A stretch of DNA of 64,000 bases from Lingula anatina (Eukaryota > Animalia > Brachiopoda): positions 1,550,001-1,614,000 of the forward strand of contig CM120649.1 of the NCBI GenBank assembly GCA_051362555.1, given 5' to 3'. Below, in pieces: positions 28,735-50,100 of the stretch (position 1 is its first letter; each line of letters begins with the position of its first letter). Below the pieces are notes generated by a model. The model saw nothing but the letters and a program-made list of their open reading frames with translations, was not told where the DNA came from and searched no databases. The position numbers and the translations under genes are program-made.

Positions 28735-30037
28735 CCCCCTCCTTTTCTGTTGCACTCTTCCGAAGCAGATTTTTACCTGCAGCACATATATAAGCTGGGC
28801 AGTTTTACTATTCAGTCCACTCCTATTTCAGTGACTTAACAACATCAATTTTTCCATTTTTTTATTCAACATTTTTGTACAGTTTTTTACGTCATATTGA
28901 ATAATTATGACACGGTCCAACATGAAAGTTGTAAAAAACAAAGCGTCAGAGTTTAAATCTTTTGAATTCCTTGATGTGAATGTCTCCACCCGGAAAGATA
29001 TGCTGCATTTGATTCTGATATACCGTCCACCCTACTCAAAGAGGCACAAGTACACCGTATCTAGCTTCGTAGACGAATTTTCCAAGCTTTTAATATCCAC
29101 ATGGATAACGAGATATGCAGCGATGTTAGGAGGTTTAAGGACCTGATTGAATCAATGGGTTTGACTCAACACATCAGAACAGCCACCCACTCAAAGGGTC
29201 ATATCCTAGACTTAGTGCTGACTCGCACCGACTTCTGCCTTCAAAGTTTTACTTTAGACCACAGCCTTCCTTCAGACCATGCTGCAATCCACTTCGTGGC
29301 AGACCTTGTACGCCCGGAACCTTCAAAAAGAGTCATCCAACGTAGAGATATCTCGAAACGTGATCCAGTAATCCTAAATGATGCGTTTAAACATGTTTTT
29401 GAGGATGCAGAACAGACCACAGATCCAAGTACCTTAGTAGATCTGTATAATACGTCTATATCCAAGATCATGGAAGATATTGCACCAATGCAGACCAGAG
29501 TCAAGTTGGTGAAACAGAGGGCTGAATGGTTTACATCTGAACTCAGCGAAGAAAGGAAAAAGATCAGGAAGCTTGAACGTCAGTGGTGCAACTCAAAATT
29601 GGAAATACACCGGGAATTATTCAAAACTGCCAGAGCTAACTATCACACCCTCCTTGAAAAGCAAAAAACTGTACACCATCGGACCTGTATTGAAGGTGCT
29701 GATCAAAGGGAACTCTTTAGGATTGTGGACAAGATTTCAGAATCTAAGTCAAGCCAGCTAAGTGTGCTTCCTGACATGGAAATGTCAACACTTCCTCTAG
29801 TTTTTGCAGATTTCTTCACAAACCGGATCAAGGATATTCGTAAGGACTTAACTCAAAATGCTACCACAGGATCCTCAGAATCAGATCCATTACCAAGTGA
29901 ATTTCAAGACAGGTGTGCCAGTCAGGGTGGTGGGGCCCAACTGAGCAATTTCCTACCGGTCTCAGAGAAGGATATTATCTCTGTTATAAAGGGGATTAAT
30001 TCTAAGTTTTGTGCTCTGGATCCCATGCCAACATATA

Positions 30038-33000
30038 CAGTGGTCGGAATAATTTTGTTTCCGTTGTACACCGGTGTAACATCGTTCGAAATGGTTTAAT
30101 CCCTATCTTGTGAATAGAAGGGGGCGGACAAACAATGGAGGGCCGTATAAATCCCTTCAAAATTCGAACGCACAAACACAATAGCTTAGGTGGAATAACA
30201 CAATACTTAATACGAGTGAACCCCATGACGCCGGTTTCTGTGGCCCAGCGCGAGCGTGACAATACGCTGTAACTAGGTGTAATCAACAGCAGGATACATC
30301 AGCCAGAAGGTCCCTATTGTTTGTTGCGGCGATAGGATTATAGCTTGAAGAGGCTAAACCCATGCTAAGGCGTGCCACGCGAAGCGAACTGTCCTTTTGT
30401 TCACTAGTTTGGCACGCACAGCTGGTTTTTAGTGTTGCTAACAAACTGCTAGCTAAATTTGTTATCAGTTATTTCATCCTATATGAAATTTCCGCAGTCA
30501 AAAATTGAACTAATTATTGTTTGTTTGGTTGAAATGCATGAGCGTCAGCATCAATCTGTCTCAAAAAATTCCTACTGCATTAATTTATAAATGTATAATT
30601 CATTTATGTACTTACGTTTTAATTTGAAATATCTGCATTCAAGCGTTCAAGTATTTATAAAACATGAATGATAATGAAAGAGGAATAAGGAAATAACATA
30701 TTACTTATATTATGCTTATATTATAATATTGAAATTAAATGAGGTTCATTGACATAGGCGCAATGACAATCCAACTACAACGTGCAACAGGGGGATTCTG
30801 GCTGTATGATCATACAATATACGAAAGTACGGTCAATTAAAAGTGTAAATCATCAGTTAAAGAGGAGGGGGTCTTACTATAGCTCGCTATCTATTGTTAA
30901 ACCCGACTGTTATTATCTCTCGAACAAGCTTAAAGCATGCCTATACAATTACTGTGTCTCCGGCTGCCGTTCAGAAACACTATGTCGAACATATTTTGCT
31001 ACAGTGAGAAACATGGTACACTAGCGACTTGTTTTAGATCACTCAAGAAAGGATGCATACGTGCCACACCAGAGGAAAAACAATCAAGTATGCATCTGAT
31101 CCTTTAATAGTAATTGCACAGTGCATGTTACTAGACCTTTGTCCTAACTCAGTAGTTAGGAATAGGATGTTTGGATAAAAAGCTTCTATTCAACTCGCTT
31201 AGACCTAGGGCGTGATGCTATCATCCGATGAAACACGTAACTGAACCCTCTACCTGTACCTGAAGTCCCTTTAGCTGAAACAAAAACTGCCCCTTGAACA
31301 TGTCCATTTTTTAATCGTCAAATGATTTGTGATTTCATTGAACGTCTTTGATCGAAAGCTTTCAAGTGACAATAACCGAACCGTGTGTTGATTATATATT
31401 AAAGCGTAATTAAGTTTATTCAACATGATCTATTTTGTAAACGATACTTGCCAAGATTGAGCTTGGATTGATCACCGTCACTATTTAGCTACTCGCCTAT
31501 AATGCGTGCTGAACGACAGACAACTTAAAAATATTATCTGTGTAACTGTGCAAATGAACGCATTTAGTTAAAATATAACGAAGCCGGCATTTAATCCATC
31601 GAACATATTTATATTTGTTCTTTTAAACCCAGTGTAAGGTTAACGCAAAATCAAAGCAAGCCTTGCAGACTGGTTTTGTTTAAACTGTCGTGCATCAAGT
31701 AAATCTAAGTAAAGCCTGTTTCTACTTCGCAGTGTTCATCCCAGCCATAAAACTGCATGAAGGATAACAAGACTCCGTAGACCTGTTCTTCAGGTTTCCA
31801 GGAGTCCCGTGTAACACAATAATATCGAAGGCCTGAGAGTAATACATATATGAGGCCGTGTATGAAAGATTTAACAAATTAGAAATTCAAGAATTTATAC
31901 ATGCTTGGTACATGCACATCACTTAATAAGTCATTTCACAAAAATCGCATCTAATATTGTTTAGATTAACCTTTACTTTTATCGATCTCATCCCATTGCC
32001 TTAACCACCTAAAAGAAATATAGTGAACATGAGGAAAAGTAACACGTTTACATGCAGGCGAAGGAGTTAAACTTCAATATTAATCGCGAACAATATCAAC
32101 AGCGACTAAAGGCCGTTGTCTGTCTTTCACACTTTTACACAATCACACGAAGGTTTAATAAAGGGAGTCGCGACGCGATATCTATCTCTTTCATTCGAAC
32201 AAGCAAAGGGCTGACCCGAAGTAAGCTTTCTATACTAATGTCCTTTTTATTGTATATTGTAATTACTCTACTTGCTCGCCTCCATTGTCTTGTAAAAGTG
32301 ACAAAGAAAGTGTTGTATTCACACACGAGTTGAAAGAACTTTGCATAACTCCTTTGCCTTAAGTTGCATTATGTCTTTCTCAAGGTTATAATCAGTGTGA
32401 AGAGGGTGTCTTGCCTCATTTAAAAAGGGTGTTGTTCTTCATACTGGTTGTTGCTTAACTTATGCTAATCTTAAACTTTTATGTACCAATATGGTTTTAA
32501 TAAATCGCCAAAATTATGAATTTAATGAACATTGTGTATCACACGTTTTGATACGATTTAAATAAATGGACGAGGAGGATTACGGTATTAGGTTCTATTT
32601 ACCTCTGGCTTTAACTTCGCCCTGCTATATAAATGAACAAATGTTGCAGATCGTAACAAAAAACTTTCTTATAGTGTTTTATGACATATATGATTTACAC
32701 ATTTGATAGTGAAACACTCCTCGACTTTAACGAATCACCTGACGTAAACTGTCTACCCGCGCTCCCCGAAAAAACTGTTTCTTTTAATATTGAAATGAAT
32801 TGCTTTTAAGGCAAAGAAGTCCATTAAACCCTTTAGTCTCAACATCATTGTACAGCATGTTGTAATCGATATTTAAAAAAGTTAATTTTGTACTTCGCTT
32901 TCATCGAGGATACCTCAAGTTGAGGTTACAATTACATCGCTCGCCTATGCTACTGGAATATATATTTAAGGACAAATTAAGCTTTGTAAAGTCCCTATTG

Positions 33001-34428
33001 TCACACACCATAGATACTTTATTTTGTCTTGAATGAAAAAATAGCCTCAATTTATCGTTTTGTGCTTAAACCTTTCATTACTTGAAGCAAGATCTGTACT
33101 ATAGCTACCAAGACGTACATGCATCAAGTTGGGTCTGCTGGGGGAGGGGAGCATTTAAATGATAAACGAGGAAGTCTACCTGCAAAAGCAGCAGCAGTGG
33201 TTTAAATAATCGCTATCTAGACTCCTTTTTCTTTGACAGCAACATAAAAAGTGTTTAGGGAGAAAGTCACACAAAGACCCGACGTTGTTTTGTCTTCAGC
33301 ATTTCCTCTTCCTTGTTATCTGCAATTACTATCGTCAATTAATGAAATCGAGAAAGCAATTAAGTGACGGCACATTGAATATAGTCACTAGGTGCATTTC
33401 ACTGAGTGTTTACAAGATCTAGCGACACATTTTATCGCCACACGTTCTAGTTTAGAAAATTAAACAGTTACTCTGGCGGCTCTCCGTCATTGCTATGAAT
33501 CTGACATCGAATTTAGTCCAAAATATTAGTAAATTCAGATTTATTAGCTAAAACGTAAATTGCGCTAATTTGTCAGATAATCAAAAATGCCGGTGATCCA
33601 CGCGGAGGGTACGCTTTCCTGAAGGTAGCGGCGACGAACGGCGACGATATTTTTCTGAATAGTGAACCTTTATTAGTTACGAAAAGCCCCCTTTTCAACA
33701 GGCACGTTTTATTAATTACTTCATGTCACAAAGTTAATTTATACAGGCAAAACTTTATTCAAGGAAATAGTTTCACGAAATGAACGAGAGTAAAATATAA
33801 GTCGGCACAAATATAAGGCATACAACAATGAGTAATGTTATGGATCATGTTATGGGCCATGTCGGATTATAATGGCATACATGTACCTTGATGCAAAACA
33901 GTCTATCGTTTCTTCCACCGCGAGTTCCTTTATTTAATGTAATGTATTACTCATTACCCGTTTTATTTGACACTCTCTCTTTTTATCTCCCTTCCCCTTT
34001 CTCTTGTTAGAAGGAGGGTAAATAATTAAGCACTCAAAATCTGCACCACCAAACTTCAGAAAAACATAAGTCGACGAACCAGTGGGCTGATCCACAACAT
34101 CCGACACAGCAGAATGAATCAAATAACAGCTAGCACAAATTTATATGCAGTTAGCTATAGTGTCACTACATACATAATCAGCTGCACGCGCGAAGCTGTT
34201 GAACAAAAGGATAGTTCGCTACGGGAGACCGTTTGTTTACATAAGTACTCTAAGGGGGCGTGGCTACCCAGGCGACCAGGGGATTAGGCTAGTTACTATA
34301 TGCCGTCAACAATCGTTTAGCGACCTATCATTATACACTCTCTCTATTGTATTTTCCACCGCATTAATCGCAGTGTAATCTTCAAATGGTCCACGGGGTA
34401 AATGTACACATTCTTAATCCAAGTACGG
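30038..34428. mobile_element. 4.4-kb non-coding DNA element with TA TSD inserted in the LINE
   Basis: Removing it plus one TA restores aca tat ata gtg aaa gag. Ends are cagtggtcggaataa / ttaatccaagtacgg. A diverged subterminal inverted match pairs 30376-30425 with 34180-34230. Confidence 0.8.
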
Positions 34429-34630
34429 TATAGTGAAAGAGTGTATTAGTGTGTTATCTCCAGTTCTCCTGAGATAAGTAAATCTGTCTTTCTCAACAGG
34501 TATCTTTCCATCAAACTGCAAAACTGCAATTGTTAGACCATTACTTAAAAAGCAAGGGCTGTGTAAAAATGTCCTGAAAAACTATAGACCAATATCAAAT
34601 CTACCCTTTTTAGGTAAATTTCTTGAAAAA

Positions 34631-35938
34631 ATGGCATGTTCCCAACTAAGCAGCTATCTATCTGAAAATAAACTCTTTGGGAAATTCCAGTCTGCCTATA
34701 GAGAAGGCCACAGCACTGAGACAGCTCTACTTCGAGTCCACAACGACATAATGCTTGCCCTGGATAAACAAAGAGATGTCATTTTAGTTCTTCTAGACCT
34801 CTCAGTGGCTTCCGATACCATAGATCATAATATTCTTCTTCACAGGTTGCAGCATCGTTTTAGAGTGAATGGACTTGCACTTAGTTGGTTTACCTCTTAC
34901 CTGAAAAACAGAACACAAAGGGTTTCAATAGAGTCGGTTTTATCTCAGCCAGTTAACTTGGAGTACGGTGTCCCACAAGGGTCTGTGTTAGGTCCGATCC
35001 TATTCTCATTATACATGTTACCTGTAGAAGATATCATACTAAAGCATGGTCTGAACACTGTTATTTTTGCAGATGACACACAAGTATATATTACATGCAA
35101 GAGCAGCCAGTCTGCAACAATCACTTCTATGGAGACTTGTCTTGCAGAGATTCGAGAATGGATGAAAGTGAACATGTTGGCTTTAAATGATAGTAAGACT
35201 GAGTTGATATGGTTTACATCAAGGTTCAAGGCAAATAGAAAAAATGTAGCAATTGCCAACATTTGCATAGGAGATGTTCTTATAAAACCACCTAGTTCTG
35301 TAAAAGATCTGGGAGTTACCCTCGATGAAAATGGCACTATAAGCAAGCGTGCATCTGAAGTGTGTAAATCAGCATCTTATGCACTATGGCGCATTAGAAA
35401 AATAAGGAAAGTGTTAGATAACAAAACCACTGAAAAATTAGTACATGCATTTATATCATCAAGATTAGATTACTGCAATAGTCTCCTCTTTGGTATTTGT
35501 GACTATCAGATTAAAAAGTTACAAGTTATTCAAAACTCAGCTGCAAGACTGGTTTGTCAAATTAAGTACAATAGTACACACCATATCACTCCCATTCTGA
35601 AAGAATTACACTGGCTGCCTGTCAAGCAGGGGATTGATTTTAAAGTACTCTGTATTATTTTTAAGGCGATCCATTCACAAGGACCATTATATTTATCTGA
35701 TCTTATCTGTTTTAACTTACCACGGCAGTCCACACGTTTTAATACTGAGAATGATTTTATTTTAGAACATTCTGTTTTAGAGAAGGGGTGCCTAAAAAGT
35801 TATGGAGATCGTGCTTTTATAATCTACGCCCCAAAAGTGTGGAATGGTCTACCAAATTTTATTAGGAAAACAGAAGACTTTGACAATTTTAAATCTCTTT
35901 TAAAGACCCACTTTTTTAATTCTGTCTATATCTCTTAG
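34631..35938 (+). CDS. LINE reverse transcriptase ORF2 segment (L2-like)
   Basis: 435-aa ORF with the RT motifs listed for the LINE. Confidence 0.85.
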
Positions 35939-41100: not shown

Positions 41101-44100
41101 TGTTTTTCTCCTTGTTATTTTCATGAGACATGCTTGAAATGGTAGTCTGATATTATTAATTGTCTCTTATTACCATATTCACATATAACTTTTATATTAT
41201 TTATAAAATATTTCAATAATTATTGATTTCAGAGGCGAAACAATGGCATTATCAAAACCTTTCCTCAAACCTCAAATGGATGAGGAACAAGAGAATTATC
41301 TTCGCATGAGAGTGTTTCTGGAGCGTGCTACAGATGTTCTTAGAGATGTACTGACTAGCGAATTACAAAAAGCTTATCCAGGGGACTTTGACCCTTCCAC
41401 AGGAATATTGTATAATGTTCTGAACATCCCAGCTGTAGCAAAAAACTTACTTCAGTTAAGTAGGAGAAATGTTCTGAATGCAAGCCAAAAGCAGATTTTG
41501 TATCCAGCTGGGGCCCCTTCCTCAACTGCAAAAACAAATGATTTTGATGTTACCTTGACTGTCCTGCTATTACGCAATATAACCACACTGAATCCAAGCG
41601 CCCAATGGGACAAGCCTCTCAGCACTGACCTGTCCACAGAAGCTGACATTGGTCGAGTGAAGACATATCGTAACAAACATATGCATAGTGTGGCCAGGCT
41701 TCCAGCAGCAACATTTCAAAGTGACTTTGAGGGTCTCAAGACAGTACTGCTACGCCTGTCAAACATTTATACAGACCAAGACTATGACAGGGTACTCATT
41801 GATCCAATACAAACCTCAGGTATACAATTTTGAAATTAAAAAAGAAAACTTTTACAAAGATTAAATTATATTGGCTGCATATAATTGCTTACATTTATTT
41901 TTAATTAAAAATATTCAGTTTTCTTGCTAATGAATTGATACATAGCATAGGTGATTTATTTCCACAGAGAAAATGTTTAACTGTTTCCAGCACAAGAACT
42001 ATCAAGAAAATGATTACTGATTAATGATTACACACAATGAAAATAATAATAATAATAATAAAACAAATGAATTATTAAGACGAGTATTTTTTTTTTTTTT
42101 TTTTTTGGGGGGGGGGGGGGGGATGATTTCAATACCAGATGAAAGCTTAATTGGTTCTCTTATTTTGGCCAGGATGAATTTTGGAAAAAAGGAATTCTAG
42201 AAGAAATCTAATATGGTATATAAAATGTTTCTTGTTTATATTGTTATGCTGAAATAAGTACCAATGTTCCAATATTATTTATTCAAAATACTTATTCCGT
42301 TCAAATTAAGTTAAATATTGTATACATTGTTTCAGGAGTACCTACCACTTGTCAGCTCATGTCCATGAACCTCCCTAGAAAAGACAGTAACTTTTGTGGA
42401 CGAGAGGATTTGCTGACAGAGATCCAACAAGATGTAGAGAACTCAGAGATTGTGCTCCTGACAGGGATGGGTGGTATTGGCAAGACCAGCATTGCTGTAG
42501 AGATGGGGCATCGCATGAGTGAAGAAGGTAGAGATGTTTTCTTTCTAGACATGAGGCAGGTTAAAAATCTAGATTCTTTTCAGTTATCACTGGTGCAACA
42601 CTACAATCCTAAGATGTTTTTGAAAGAAATATATGGCGATTATCAAAACTTATTTCAAAAGGCTCTTTCTGAGATAAACTCGTCAACTGTGGTTATTTTT
42701 GACAGCATTGATCATTTTATAAGAGCTAAGAAAGCAGAACAGTTTTTACAATTATGTCAGGATATGTTGAAAGCATCAAAGCACATCTCATTAGTTTGTA
42801 CAAGTCGCCAATCATTTGACCTCACATCTGTGAAAGTAAACGAAAAAGCAATATCCCATCTTGATGTTAAATCATCAACTTGGCTACTATCAGGTGGGGC
42901 TTCTGCCCCCCAAACAGAAGAACAGGCTAAAATCTTGGAAGAAGTAGCTGCTAGATGTGGGTACTGTCCTCTTGCCTTGAAATTACTAGCACCTCAAATA
43001 AAAAAGAAAGGAGGTTTGCGAATGCAAGAGAAAATAGACAGAAAGGGTGTTCTTGAAGTAGCAGATACATCTGAATTTGAAGGAATGAAGTCAACTTTTG
43101 AAATATCATTTGAAGCATTGTCTAGTAGTGAAAAAGATATGTTCTGCAATCTTTACATATTCCCAGTGTCGTTTCATTTGACTGATGTTTCAAACATTCT
43201 CCAAAAAGAAGAGGGTGAATGTGAAGACATTCTTGATAGTCTTACATCCAAGTCCCTTGTAAACCAAGTGAGTGATCAGGTTTATGATCTACATCCCCTG
43301 TTAAAGGCTTTTTCTGATTCCCAAGCAAAACAAATTCCAGATAAAATACCAAAGATGGAAATTTCATACTGCAAATATTATGGTGAAAGGGCAGCTTTAC
43401 TGGTAGTAATATTTGAATCCACAGTTCCAAAATTTGCAAATGAAAGAGCAGAAATCATACTTCCACATTTGTTGTACAGTGGAAAACTTTTGCTAAAACA
43501 TCTAAGCCAATACCTTCAAAATGAATCAACAAGCACTACTGCACTAGTCAAGGATGTTGACATAGATTATGATGATTTCATACTAAGGCTTCTGGCCATA
43601 ACCAATGTATTGAGACAAATGTATTTGTTAAATGAGCCTCTGTACCTATTAAAAGAGTTAGCAAATGTTCTAAAAACAAAACAAAACGTGCTTCCTAACA
43701 GAAAAACCAGAATGCACTTATCTTCAGTATATCACAGTATTGGGACAGTTTTGTTTGTGATGGGTAAGTATGACGCTGCATTGGAATACCACAAGAAAAG
43801 TTTTGAAATATGTAAAAAGCTGCTTGGCACCCAGCACACTCAAACCGCTGGAACATACAGCAATATTGGTCTTGTGCTACATGAGATGGGTAAGTTTAAT
43901 GACGCATTAACATATCAAAATAAAGGTCTTGAAATACAAGAAAAGGTGCTCGGTACCAACCACCCTTGTACTGCTTTACCATACAGCAACTATGGAAATC
44001 TGCTACATGACATGGGAAAGTATGATGATGCATTGACATATTACTGGAAAGGTCTTGCAATTCAAGAACTGCTGCTGGGCACCAATCACACTGAAACTGC

Positions 44101-47100
44101 TGGCTCATACAGCAATATTGGTCTTGTGCTATATGCCATGGGTAAGTTTAATGATGCATTAACATATCAAAAGAAAGGTCTTGAAATACAAGAAAATGTG
44201 CTAGGTACCAACCACCCTGAAACTGCTGACTCATACAGCAATATTGGTCTTGTGCTACATGCCATGGGTAAGTATGATGATGCATTGACATATCACATGA
44301 AAGGTCTTGAAATACATGAAAAGTTGCTAGGTACCAACCACCCTAAAACTGCTGACTCATACGGCAATATTGCTAGTGTACTATGTTACATAGGTAAGTA
44401 TGATGATGCATTAACATATCAAATGAAAGGTCTTGAAATACATGAAAAGGTACTAGGTACCAATCACCCTAAAACTGCTGACTCATACACCAACTATGGT
44501 GCTCTGCTACGTAAAATGGGCAAGTTTAATGATGCTCTGACATATCACATGAAAGGTCTTGCAATTCAAGAACAGCTGCTAGGTACCAATCACCCTCGTA
44601 CTGCAGCCTTATACGGCAGAATTGGTGTCCTGCTTCATAGCATGGGTAAGTATGATGAGGCATTGACATATCATATGAAATGTCTTGCAATTCAAGAACA
44701 GCTGCTAGGCAACAATCACACTAAAACTGCTGGCTCATACAATAGTATTGGTCTTGTACTACGTAGCATGGGTAAGTATGATGATGCATTGACATATCAC
44801 ATGAAAGGTCTTGCAATTCAAGAACAGCTGCTAGGCACCAATCACACTGAAACTGCTGGTTCACACAGCAATATTGGTATTGTGCTACATGACATGGGTA
44901 AGTATGATGATGCATTGACATATCAAAAGAAAGGTCTTAAAGTACTTGAAGAGGTGCTTGGCACCAAACACACTAAAACTACTCAGTTATACTTCAACCT
45001 TAGTATTTTACTACTTGACATGGGTGAGAATGCAGAGTCTCTTAAATATATGAAGAAGGCACTTGATACATATGAAACACATTGTGGTGTCAAGCATGAA
45101 AAAACGGCTTCATGTTACCTAGTTATTGGGAAAACGTTTGTAGCTGTGAGGTTGTACAGAGATGGAGTTCTTTATTTGAAGAAATGTGTATCAGTTCAAG
45201 AAGAGTTACTTGGTCTGACTCACCCCAGTACAATAGATACATGTAAAAAGATTGGTGCCGTTCTTATACAGATGGGTCAATTTGCAGAAGCAATTGAGTA
45301 TTTCGAAAAAATTAACTGGAACATTGTCATTGACAGAATCGTGTACTTTTATCCACCCTCACCCTAAACTCGACGTGGAATTTGGAATGATGTATATATG
45401 AAAAACAATAGGGACCCAAGCAGGAATCAAATATTTAAGCATAATGTATATACAAACATTCAGTTAAAGAAAATATGTATCTGATGGAAATCATCTGGGA
45501 AAATCCCTTAAATGACCTGTTACATCAACATATAACTGAGCTGAAGTTATGCTAAGATACATATACCTTGTTATGTGTATACATGTTCATGTCTGCTTTC
45601 AACAGTTTAACAGCCCTGAACCTGTACAATACCAGCTTGATTATATGTAAATATGTGTATGAGTGTGTGCATTTGTTTGTGGGTGTAAGAAAGAGTAATT
45701 CCTTTTTTTTTACTGAAAGATAAGGAAAATTGTATCAGACTGCCATTTTAAACCATGTCTCATCAAAATAACAAAGGGGTGGGAACAATTTGTTACATTG
45801 ATCAAGTGCTTTGATGACTTTCCATTCCTGAATATCAATATATTTTAGAGCAAATAGCTGTACAGAAATAATTAGGGTAGCATTTGATGAATATTTTACT
45901 ATTCAAAGCATAGAAATATATCATTTCTCCCACAGTTGGTGCTTTGAACAAGATGATAATATGTATTGCATGTGTATTTCAATTACTTGCTCACCTGTAT
46001 TTTCATAAGCTTCTGTGCTTTCAACCTTTTGTTCAAAGTGCCAGTCATGGGATAAGTCAGATACAACTACTGGTTGTCCACTGTACACGACATACAAAAG
46101 CACACATTTTATCTGGGCTGCGCCTTGGCATACGTACACTTTTATATGTCGAATACAGCGGAGGACTATGTAGTAACTAGTGTAAAATGTAAACTTGTTT
46201 TTTTTTCAAAGCATAAAGGCATTGTTTGTCATATAAGTGAACTCTGGATTTCAACGAAGTTTTACATAGTTTTAGCAGCACGTTCTGTCAAAGAACTGAA
46301 ATAGTGAAGGACTATATCGCTATTTCCCATCATTTGGGTTAACTGACTTTAGAACTCTTTGCTGCAACTTGAAATCCATTATCTTATATATTGTATATCA
46401 GATAATTCATATAACGGTGTCTTTATGATGTGTATATTGAAGGATAGTCATCATAATGTCTCAAATACAACTGGTTGTGGTATTATTAAGAGACAAATTA
46501 TTATGCATGTATTCATGGAAATATCAAAAACCCATGTTACATGTTTTAATTTGTTCACAGTGCGTATTCCAGAATATTTTAAAAAGATATTTTTCTATTA
46601 CTGTCAGTTGGAGAGTGATAAAGAGAGAAATCCATTATACAGTATATAATGTGATGTAACTAGATGTAGGAAGTTAAATTGCCATTAATGATGAGTTATT
46701 ATAGCCTCATTGTACTGTTATTATCTACTAGTATAAGTGGTCTGAACTATGGTAGTGTTGCACTAGACAACTGTTAACATTGCGATGTAATAAAACTAAT
46801 AATAAATTCTTAAAGTAAAACAAAAGTGTTGTTGGGTATTTCTTAAAATTACTCTCCCCTGTTTGCTTCATGTTAATCACTGTCAAAAAATCCAAGGGTG
46901 TATTTCTTTTAACTACTCTCAAGTGTTTGTTAATGTTTTAACATATTAATCAAAATAAACATAAAAAAATCATTATGTTAAAAGTCAATCAGAACTGAAT
47001 ATGTGACTCAGAATCAACATTTGTGGTGTTACATATAAAAGGAAAAACTTCCCCTTAGGACCAATATCTCTGCCAAATGTACTCTTTTAATACATCATTA

Positions 47101-50100
47101 GTTTATCTAGCCATGTCAAAGGCAATGGAGGCACAATGTATAAGAAATAACGCATGTATTTGCATTGCTCATTAAGAGAGAAATGGTACACATGCAAAAA
47201 CGAATTGGAAATGCACACAAACACACACACACACACATACATACATACACACAATCACACGTACACACATACACATTTGTACTAATTAAACTTACCTACA
47301 TATCCATTAGGATCCCTTCCGTCCAGCTCATACCTATCATTGAGATAAATACTAATTTTCAAAGCCTCCTCAGGACTGCTGGTCCACTCCAGGATTTTCT
47401 TTGCCCAGTACATTCTGAGGAATCCATGCATCTTGCCCTCTTTTACCATTTGAAGCTGGGAAAATTAAGAGGGGTTCACTATTATTTTTGCAGTATAATA
47501 GTGACAAAGCATCTTGAAATGATTAAAGATTTTTTGAAAAATGACGTCATTAAGTGAATTTGTACAGTTTTTCCATAGAACTGCCACATTTATATATTAA
47601 ATATCTGAAATGCCAAAATGAATCACACTTGATTCACAATGGAGAAAACATTAGTTAACTAAAATTTTCATTAAAATAATTGACTTATTATAGCTTATTA
47701 TAAGACAACACATTGAATGAATCATAATAGCTTGCTCTGCAAGCTGCATATTATGTAATATTCAGCACAGTGACCACACACCAGGCAAAAATACACCTGC
47801 TTTGTATGCAGTTGAGTGTGACCAAAATATTTAAACAAGTAAATCTGTTTAAGATGTGATTTATTTTATTTTTATATTTATGCATGGCCTAAGGGGAGAA
47901 ATCAACCCCTTCCTCCAGCAACCCCCCCCCCTCCCACTCCACCCCCAACACACACACACAAGTTTAAACCATGTTAATCATTTGTTCAGGAAGCAGGTGG
48001 TTAAAAGGGAAGTCCCCCCCCCCCCCCCCCCCCATGCATGCCATGAAAAATCTATAGACGTAATCTTCATAACATGCACAATTTCAGAATCAACAAAATG
48101 AAGGGAAATTTAAAATATATTTCCGGGTGACCTAGTTATACCTGTGCTGCATTCCAGAGATCGTCATGTGTTTTCCCTTCCTCCAACTGTTTACATGTGT
48201 AAACGTACTCGCGCTTGTCACTGGCATGTTTTCGTAACGTCTCCTTGGCCCAGACATATGCACCTGATGGCATTAAAATCAAGGGCATGCAACGAACATT
48301 ATACTATTTATTTTTGAAATAAAATCTTTTTAAATCTTCCACTATTCCTTAACATACCAAAAGTTGAGAACTATCACCCAGTTTTTGTGTTTTTTAGCGT
48401 CAAGATTCTGGGTCATTTTTGCAATGGATACACAGACTGATTAATTTCACTAATGTAGTCAAAAATTATAAACTTTTCAAAAAAATATAAATTCAGAACT
48501 CAGAAAAATGGATCAACCATGCTTACTTTCAAACACATCTGAAAAAATAACATTATTCAATTTTTGACAAATCTACAATAAATTCATCCCTGCGGAGTTC
48601 AAAAATGGCCCATTTACTCACACTCTATGGAGTCATAGTTCTCCACATAGTAACAAAAATTATCCGACAATTCTCTCCTTATGATGGATTCCTCCAGGAA
48701 AGCATCTCCTCCCTCTTTGAACTTGGACTTGAACTGTTTGACTACCAGGGCACACCTCTGGGCTGACACCTGGCCTGGTTAGAGGAATATTAAAACTGAT
48801 AAATATACTGATTAGAACTTTTTTTTCTTCAGTCAACAGATAATATATATTGATATAGTTTTTAACTCAAATATTTCGATGTCTAACAGATCATCTTCAT
48901 CAGGGAAAGAGGCTATCCAGGTGAATAGCCACTGCTTGGAAGATATGCTGCCCCCCCCTCCCCCCCCCCCCCCCCCCCCAATATATACTGATATAGTTTT
49001 TAACTCAAATATTTCGATGTCTAACAGATCATCTTCATCAGGGAAAGAGGCTATCCAGGTGAATAGCCACTGCTTGGAAGATATGCTGCCCCCCCCCCCC
49101 CCCAATATATATTGATATAGTTTTTAACTCAAATATTTCGATGTCTAACAGATCATCCCCATCAGGGAAAGAGGCTATCCAGGTGAATAGCCACTGCTTG
49201 GAAGATATACTCCCCCCCCCCCACACACACACACACACACACACACCTATTGTCTTAGCTGTTGACTGAAGAAAATATATTCTTATAACATAACACAGCT
49301 GAGGAATTTCTTCTCTGATAAACATTTTATTTTACTATACTTCTATATAAATATATACTATAACCTGGTAATAGGAGGCATTGCACTCTTCTGATAAATA
49401 TATAAATATGAAATAAAGTCATAACAGATTTATATTGTATTAGCATAGAAATTTGTTTTGCCAAGAGCATATTGAATGACATGGGCAATCATGGAGTTTT
49501 TTGAATTTTTTGTCTCTAGCCTTCTCGTACAGTGTGCCACTCTTACCTGAACAACAAGCTTAAATGAATGGCTTCTAGGTAGAGGGGAACATACTATAAG
49601 CACGGAATAAAATCATAAATCTAAAAATTTAAGATCCTTTCATTTTTCTACATTTGAACAATGAACATACAAGAACCCTGTAACACCTGCGTACCAAAGT
49701 GAATCCAGGGGGAGAGATTACTGCAGGCGTTTTTATTGGGGTTGTTTCTGTCCGCGTTGAAGAACTTCAGGCGCTCCTTGCAGAATGTCTCCAGCGTTCT
49801 CAGCCCTGCTGTGGTTCCCGGCGACGCCCACTTCACCTCCGTCACCGTCCGGTCAATCTGTAGCGATGCCTTGGCAGCCGACCAGTCAACTGGCTGAAAT
49901 ATCATTAATGAATTCATATACATTTTACTTAAGTATCTATTAGAAAATTTTCACTGGAACTCTTGACCATATGGTCTAACTGCCAGGGTGCCCTGCAGGG
50001 TGCTCACCTCAATATAAAAATAATACCTACTTTGTCCTTCCTATGCACTCAGCATGTAATAACATTACAGAGGACAGATAATGTGAATGATAACTATACA

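Follow-up and report, generated by a model that had tools for sequence, protein, structure and literature searches.

A spliced HEPN-NB-ARC-TPR gene of the brachiopod Lingula anatina with an intact HEPN motif and a repeat array that appears to diversify

Introduction

In animals, HEPN domains of the DZIP3/hRUL138 family are listed as fused to TPR, NACHT, DEATH and LRR domains, and an RNase L-like output was proposed in 2013 for HEPN-NACHT proteins of the related CXorf38 family in a source that also describes some HEPN domains as non-catalytic (PMC3710099). The HEPN domain of DZIP3 is reported to be structurally similar to those of Cas13an and AbiD/F (PMC12165695). The pearl oyster is reported to have more than 50 HEPN-NACHT genes, the Rx4-6H motif being retained in 194 of 202 HEPN proteins, and degradation of viral or transposon RNA by these HEPNs was suggested in 2022 (PMC9646362); in anthozoans, HEPN is described as the commonest NACHT partner (PMC8260672). 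The layout HEPN + NB-ARC + TPR is found in corals in 8 of the first 32 of 323 HEPN rows of one supplement (Additional file 17 of PMC10236652). A further class of repeat-bearing receptors, the high-internal-conservation (HIC) NLRs known from fungi, is stated to occur in animals too (PMC13449251). Here we describe a gene of this general layout (41243..45367, + strand) and its tandem paralog in a window of 64,000 nucleotides from the Lingula anatina genome (GCA_051362555.1, contig CM120649.1, positions 1,550,001 to 1,614,000 of the forward strand); all coordinates below are those of the window.

Results

Two open reading frames (ORFs) in the ORF list of the window, 41207-41833 and 42224-45367, join into one spliced gene on the + strand. 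Translation from the ATG at 41243, with the splice donor after 41819 and the acceptor before 42336, yields 3609 nt encoding 1202 amino acids with a single terminal stop. The original prediction, which had been made from the sequence alone, held that two ORFs form one protein of about 1202 amino acids through a phase-1 intron, and the open frame and its GT-AG intron confirmed this. Likewise borne out were a DZIP3-type HEPN domain with the motif RNKHMH, an array of 13 TPR units and the variant motif RNNHMH in the paralog, the last being present in the sequence. The RefSeq protein P0001 (Lingula anatina LOC106161156, 1285 aa) is continuous across the exon junction and has the same layout. Four of the nine RNA runs listed for the species label were aligned on the gene (X1, X4, X7 and X9). 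The original prediction had named reads joining 41819 to 42336 as a check, and eight such reads, skipping the 516-nt GT..AG intron, were found (four in X7, four in X9), all of them from related copies; X7 held four further junction reads from a more divergent copy. Reads of X7 and X9 span both exons, with zero depth in the two bins lying fully within the intron (repeats were skipped in part of the intron), and the coding region was barely covered in X1 and X4. Since none of the reads reaches 99% likeness, they derive from other alleles or paralogs and show that close copies, not the 41243..45367 copy itself, are transcribed and spliced. A bacterial contaminant was ruled out by the spliceosomal intron, the poly(A) RNA reads and the Lingula homologs. 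At the 5' end, a splice acceptor TTTCAG lies within 41227-41242, immediately upstream of the ATG, and 12 X9 reads end loosely at 41230; an untranslated 5' exon outside the aligned stretch is therefore likely. The 3' flank (45368-47300) is about 73% alike between the paralogs over about 2 kb, reads cover its start and the first AATAAA stands at 46789, which suggests a long 3' untranslated region.

The HEPN domain, contained entirely in exon 1, matched HEPN_DZIP3 (PF18738) with 103.3 bits against a curated cut-off of 27, and its motif R143-N-K-H-M-H148 (R143-N144-x3-H148) starts at residue 143 (nt 41669). Among 156 non-gap homolog rows of 26-85% identity, the arginine was kept in 152, the asparagine in 148 and the histidine in 151. 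The Rx4-6H spacing was retained in 147 of 158 homologs (58 Rx4H, 89 Rx5H), the remainder comprising five with R but without H, four without R and two gapped; D102 and R138 were also near-invariant. The exon 1 model is all-helical with a predicted local distance difference test (pLDDT) score of 95.8, and its top structural match was Csm6 (Z 7.0; root mean square deviation, 3.8; 115 aligned residues), with AbiF ranking fourth (Z 6.3). The KEN domains of RNase L and Ire1 were absent among the 50 structure-search matches listed for this model, and a HEPN sequence search of the PDB gave no match at E<=10. Two copies of residues 10-192 were predicted to form a homodimer with a score of 0.39, compared with 0.00 for the best of three controls; contact agreement between runs was 93% or higher, partner pLDDT was 85 or higher and the interface comprised 163-180 contacts. 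In a microbial benchmark, 21 of 30 solved pairs and none of 23 single chains attained the mark used for this score; in a eukaryotic benchmark, the counts were 17 of 29 for pairs (7 of 16 for those from animals) and 0 of 30 for single chains. In the best contact pairs, residues 152-189 of one chain met helix 14-39 and helix 132-146 of its partner, and the C-terminal helices, as judged without coordinates, may be swapped across a hinge just after H148. Because the isolated HEPN is predicted to pair unaided, activation may be a release from autoinhibition rather than forced dimerization.

The switch module of exon 2 retains Walker A, Walker B, the sensor-1 arginine, GxP and the MHD-position histidine in order (Table 1), together with a predicted NBD-HD1-WHD fold. 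The model of exon 2 residues 1-586 had a pLDDT of 90.4, and its best fold matches were the STAND-TPR protein 6mfv (E 3.4e-13) and ADP-bound Apaf-1 (1z6t, E 1e-10), with Avs5 (9jap) and Avs3 (8dgc) ranking below Apaf-1 and plant NLRs. The NB-ARC fold is thus predicted to be Apaf-1-like.

The TPR array (43718 to 45355; TPR_12 profile, 557.9 bits) carried a signal of diversification at the positions that form the concave ligand face of TPR, which are given as 2, 5, 9, 12, 13, 33 and 34 of the unit (PMC1261162). At these groove positions of units 2-10, the proportion of nonsynonymous differences (pN) was 0.458 versus 0.132 elsewhere, the proportion of synonymous differences (pS) being 0.230, and the corrected ratio of nonsynonymous to synonymous change (dN/dS) was 2.57 versus 0.53. 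Groove pN/pS in the 41243..45367 gene was 1.99 (bootstrap 1.35-3.11), and random sets of seven positions reached the groove signal in 1 of 200000 draws, or in 80 of 200000 with the draw restricted to variable positions. In 58 units from nine Lingula proteins (P0009, P0011 and P0013 were omitted for having too few units), the five most variable positions were 9, 2, 13, 12 and 5. The groove signal marks residues likely to set specificity. At silent sites, units 4 and 5 of the gene differ by 3.4%, compared with 29% for the closest cross-gene unit pair and 13-22% in non-repeat regions. Because these two units are far closer to each other than any cross-gene pair, the repeats have turned over since the duplication. 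Similarity to the repeat consensus, obtained by our own calculation and not with T-REKS, was 0.775 for units 2-10, 0.716 for units 1-11 and 0.654 for all 13, values straddling the 0.7 threshold given for HIC repeats (PMC13449251). In its pattern of change, the array resembles those of fungal HIC NLRs.

The window contains two gene copies, and comparison of the two separated the conserved from the changing parts of the protein. Identity falls from 88-90% to 53% in the TPR core, and the number of repeats differs (13 versus 12). Values of dN/dS were 0.24 for HEPN, 0.33-0.34 for NB-ARC and 0.78 for the helical linker, indicating purifying selection on HEPN and NB-ARC. The paralog has its intron (3984 nt) at the same position. 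Between its Walker A and Walker B motifs, a T8 run (22599-22606) carries one additional T that shifts the frame, a feature that the original prediction did not mention. Because an open frame of 876 codons follows the additional T, with dN/dS resembling that of the upstream part, the shift appears to be either a loss of very recent date or an error of assembly.

The closest relatives of the protein were 12 Lingula anatina RefSeq NB-ARC-TPR proteins (P0001, P0002, P0005-P0013 and P0066), and because all of these are from Lingula anatina, a family expansion in the brachiopod is indicated. HEPN is carried by 11 of the 12, and Rx4H is kept in 10 of those 11, the histidine being absent from P0011. 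These relatives bear automatic annotations only ("uncharacterized", "nephrocystin-3-like", "TPR protein 28-like"). P0001 shares the layout and is 85% identical in HEPN and 84% in NB-ARC, whereas identity in its TPR core is only 61% and its length exceeds that of the window protein by 83 aa, or about two units. Among close HEPN relatives (46-55% identical), the fusion partner is CARD-NACHT in P0003, Roc-COR in P0210, an IIGP GTPase in P0068 and CARD in P0069, with motifs intact in P0210, P0068 and P0003; more distant ones are joined to NACHT-LRR, NACHT-WD40, nSTAND3-ankyrin and B-box/NHL proteins. The variety of switches fused to the close relatives fits a portable effector. Past the Lingula matches, NB-ARC searches returned mostly distant proteins of 20-27% identity, unnamed or named as bacterial. 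A gene transfer reading was not drawn from the bacterial names, the search being word-limited and the Atlas look-alikes, a lead only, being mostly cnidarian clusters.

Other elements were noted around the two copies. The paralog intron holds a foldback-like insertion of about 2.9 kb (18457-21378) whose inverted arms (18457-19228 and 20613-21378), each about 770 nt long, are 92-97% complementary. Between the paralogs lies, in pieces, a retrotransposon resembling a long interspersed nuclear element (29065-35938), with a reverse transcriptase ORF at 34478-35938 (RVT_1, 108 bits); the ORF upstream of it (29065-30099), which appears endonuclease-like, had no Pfam match. A 161-nt tandem repeat of 5.9 copies with 93% matches occupies 56022-56970. 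The first half of the ORF at 59550-59918, which had no Pfam match, resembles a coding exon of another gene.

Table 1. Features of the HEPN-NB-ARC-TPR gene and its tandem paralog in the window
Feature	Position	Strand	Basis or content
Coding exon 1	41243..41819	+	Whole DZIP3-type HEPN domain, 192 codons + 1 nt; Pfam PF18738, all-helical model
HEPN motif R143-N-K-H-M-H148 (Rx4H)	41669..41686	+	Kept in homologs
Intron, 516 nt, phase 1, GT-AG (GTATAC...TTTCAG)	41820..42335	+	Joined frame, 8 junction reads of related copies
Coding exon 2	42336..45367	+	NB-ARC (NBD, HD1, WHD), helical linker, TPR array, stop
Walker A, GMGGIGKT, aa 236	42464..42487	+	Sequence, homolog alignment
Walker B, VVIFDSID, aa 311 (Ser after first Asp)	42689..42712	+	Sequence, homolog alignment
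Sensor-1-like CTSR	42797..42808	+	Arg invariant in 47 rows
GxP (GLPL-like) motif GYCPLAL, aa 401	42959..42979	+	Sequence, homolog alignment
MHD-position motif LHP, aa 511	43289..43297	+	Sequence, homolog alignment
13 TPR units of 42 aa (126 nt)	43718..45355	+	Repeat analysis; TPR_12 profile
TPR units 2-10, highly alike, hypervariable groove positions	43844-44977	+	Repeat analysis
Tandem paralog exon 1, HEPN with RNNHMH, 88% aa identical	17756..18332	+	Sequence comparison, Pfam
Tandem paralog exon 2, NB-ARC + 12 TPR units, frameshifted	22317..25208	+	Sequence comparison

Discussion

We consider it probable that the protein is a ligand-gated, NLR-like STAND switch in which the TPR array senses an intracellular target and the effector is HEPN, working as an RNase in dimeric form. 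By analogy to Apaf-1, Avs and fungal NLRs, with the activation steps borrowed from Apaf-1 and Avs7 (PMC13581612), the ADP-bound NB-ARC and the TPR array would hold HEPN inactive at rest until a ligand docks in the variable TPR groove. Exchange of ADP for ATP and oligomerization of NB-ARC would then free or align HEPN pairs, whose R-x4-H sites would cleave RNA (host tRNA, rRNA or mRNA, or invader RNA) and lead to translation stop or cell death. Turnover of the TPR repeats would renew the specificity of recognition. The route from TPR binding through oligomerization to a HEPN RNase had already been outlined in the original prediction, and it is consistent with the conserved R/N/H residues, the dimer prediction, the Apaf-1/STAND fold and the diversifying groove.

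Part of this evidence would also suit a catalytic HEPN within a standing dimer that, like Csm6, is switched by a change of shape, or a narrow RNA regulator acting, for example, against transposon or specific host RNAs, neither being an oligomerizing, cell-killing sensor. The isolated HEPN is predicted to pair alone through a large interface, Csm6 is its best structural match, and PMC9646362 suggests that such HEPNs degrade viral or transposon RNA. Nevertheless, we regard this alternative as unlikely because every STAND switch motif is retained, oligomerizing STAND proteins are the best fold matches and a diversifying groove fits a changing foreign ligand. It is quite improbable that HEPN is a non-catalytic RNA-binding or protein-interaction head that signals via other proteins. 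Non-catalytic HEPN domains exist (PMC3710099), the histidine is gone from one of the 11 Lingula relatives with a HEPN, and active RNases are matched in fold only moderately well, but the near-universal retention of R, N and H across homologs as distant as 26% identity and the purifying selection on HEPN argue against it. That the 41243..45367 copy is silent or decaying in a birth-and-death gene family, as the frameshifted neighbor and the want of closely matching reads might hint, is very unlikely given its intact 1202-aa frame, canonical splice sites, dN/dS of 0.24-0.34 against the paralog and transcribed, spliced close copies.

Several observations weigh against a ligand-gated RNase switch and temper the original prediction. 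The fold of the N-terminal domain proved helical with Csm6 ranked first, as expected of a HEPN, but the likeness is moderate: its Z is below 8, a range that helical bundles reach by chance, unrelated bundles stand within 1 Z unit and Foldseek gave no match for the model at E<=0.001. Modeling of the HEPN dimer, suggested at the outset, did return a homodimer, but the residues named for its interface do not include R143, N144 or H148, and a composite active site is at most putative. Only one of seven eukaryotic pairs without a solved relative reached the dimer mark, so that the result for HEPN may reflect HEPN dimers memorized by the predictor. The predicted NB-ARC/STAND module stood as regards its ordered switch motifs and its likeness to Apaf-1 and 6mfv, although the Pfam NB-ARC score of 22.5 bits falls just below the cut-off of 23.5; the Lingula relative P0011 passes that cut-off with 28 bits. 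As for the array, six units of the window paralog had no groove signal (pN 0.287 versus 0.233; dN/dS 0.50), the pairwise counts lack independence because the repeats recombine, and the table of TPR variability was viewed before the position set was confirmed in PMC1261162. No aligned read in the four RNA runs is at least 99% alike to the 41243..45367 copy. RNase activity, ligand and oligomerization, like each step of the proposed mechanism, are all at the level of inference.

A bolder extension of the ligand-gated reading, to which we give somewhat less than even credence, is a single-protein animal immune switch in which a fungal-type reshuffling TPR sensor drives an RNase directly through an Apaf-1-like ATPase, without adaptor or second messenger. 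If true, this would be an RNase-L-like invertebrate shutdown renewed by repeat turnover, with the one-exon HEPN as a portable kill module that Lingula put on NB-ARC, NACHT, Roc-COR and IIGP switches. NLR-like genes with a HEPN head rank with the most expanded classes of immune genes in corals and bivalves, and if they are ligand-gated RNases, invertebrates would own an Avs-like, adaptor-free effector arm. The gene lends itself to testing: it has two exons, HEPN sits on one of them, the motif is intact and a dimer is predicted.

The gene is real, and both its architecture and the idea of an RNase effector were known before. The novelty claimed in the original prediction therefore stands in part: the layout is already catalogued in corals and the effector idea is in print (PMC10236652, PMC3710099, PMC9646362), whereas a search at the level of titles and abstract openings, with most subscription journals outside its reach, found no experimental study of a DZIP3-type HEPN NLR, leaving the kind experimentally uncharacterized in the literature found. 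New here are the predicted HEPN homodimer, the purifying selection indicated for HEPN and NB-ARC, and the evidence for a TPR sensor that diversifies and reshuffles its repeats.

Among described systems, the coral orthogroup OG0000193 (DZIP3-like HEPN + NB-ARC + TPR) is like the Lingula family in having the identical three-part architecture (PMC10236652); no coral protein was among the named matches of our NB-ARC searches. The bivalve and cnidarian HEPN-NACHT proteins share the HEPN family, defined in PMC3710099, the Rx4-6H motif and its N-terminal place on a STAND module, but have NACHT instead of NB-ARC and LRR, WD40 or TPR sensors (PMC9646362, PMC8260672). Fungal NB-ARC-TPR HIC NLRs resemble the Lingula protein in their 42-aa units, high repeat identity, variable repeat number and hypervariable positions, whereas their named effectors are of PNP-UDP, SesB and HET types and the Lingula repeat identity is borderline (PMC13449251). 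Bacterial Avs proteins combine, as is proposed for the Lingula protein, an enzymatic effector, STAND and a TPR sensor and are activated by ligand-driven oligomerization (PMC13581612), but the likeness in fold is distant and the Lingula gene, an animal gene with an intron, may at most work like Avs. The HEPN RNases Csm6, AbiF and Cas13, which are dimeric, have in common with it the Rx4H motif and, by its model, an all-helical fold, at 9-12% identity and Z 5-7, and differ in that the Lingula protein has no CARF domain or guide RNA. Collectively, the tripartite effector-STAND-repeat layout of NLR-like receptors is present in the Lingula protein, which departs from the canonical animal NLR (NACHT + LRR) in having a TPR array and a predicted Apaf-1-like NB-ARC fold instead.

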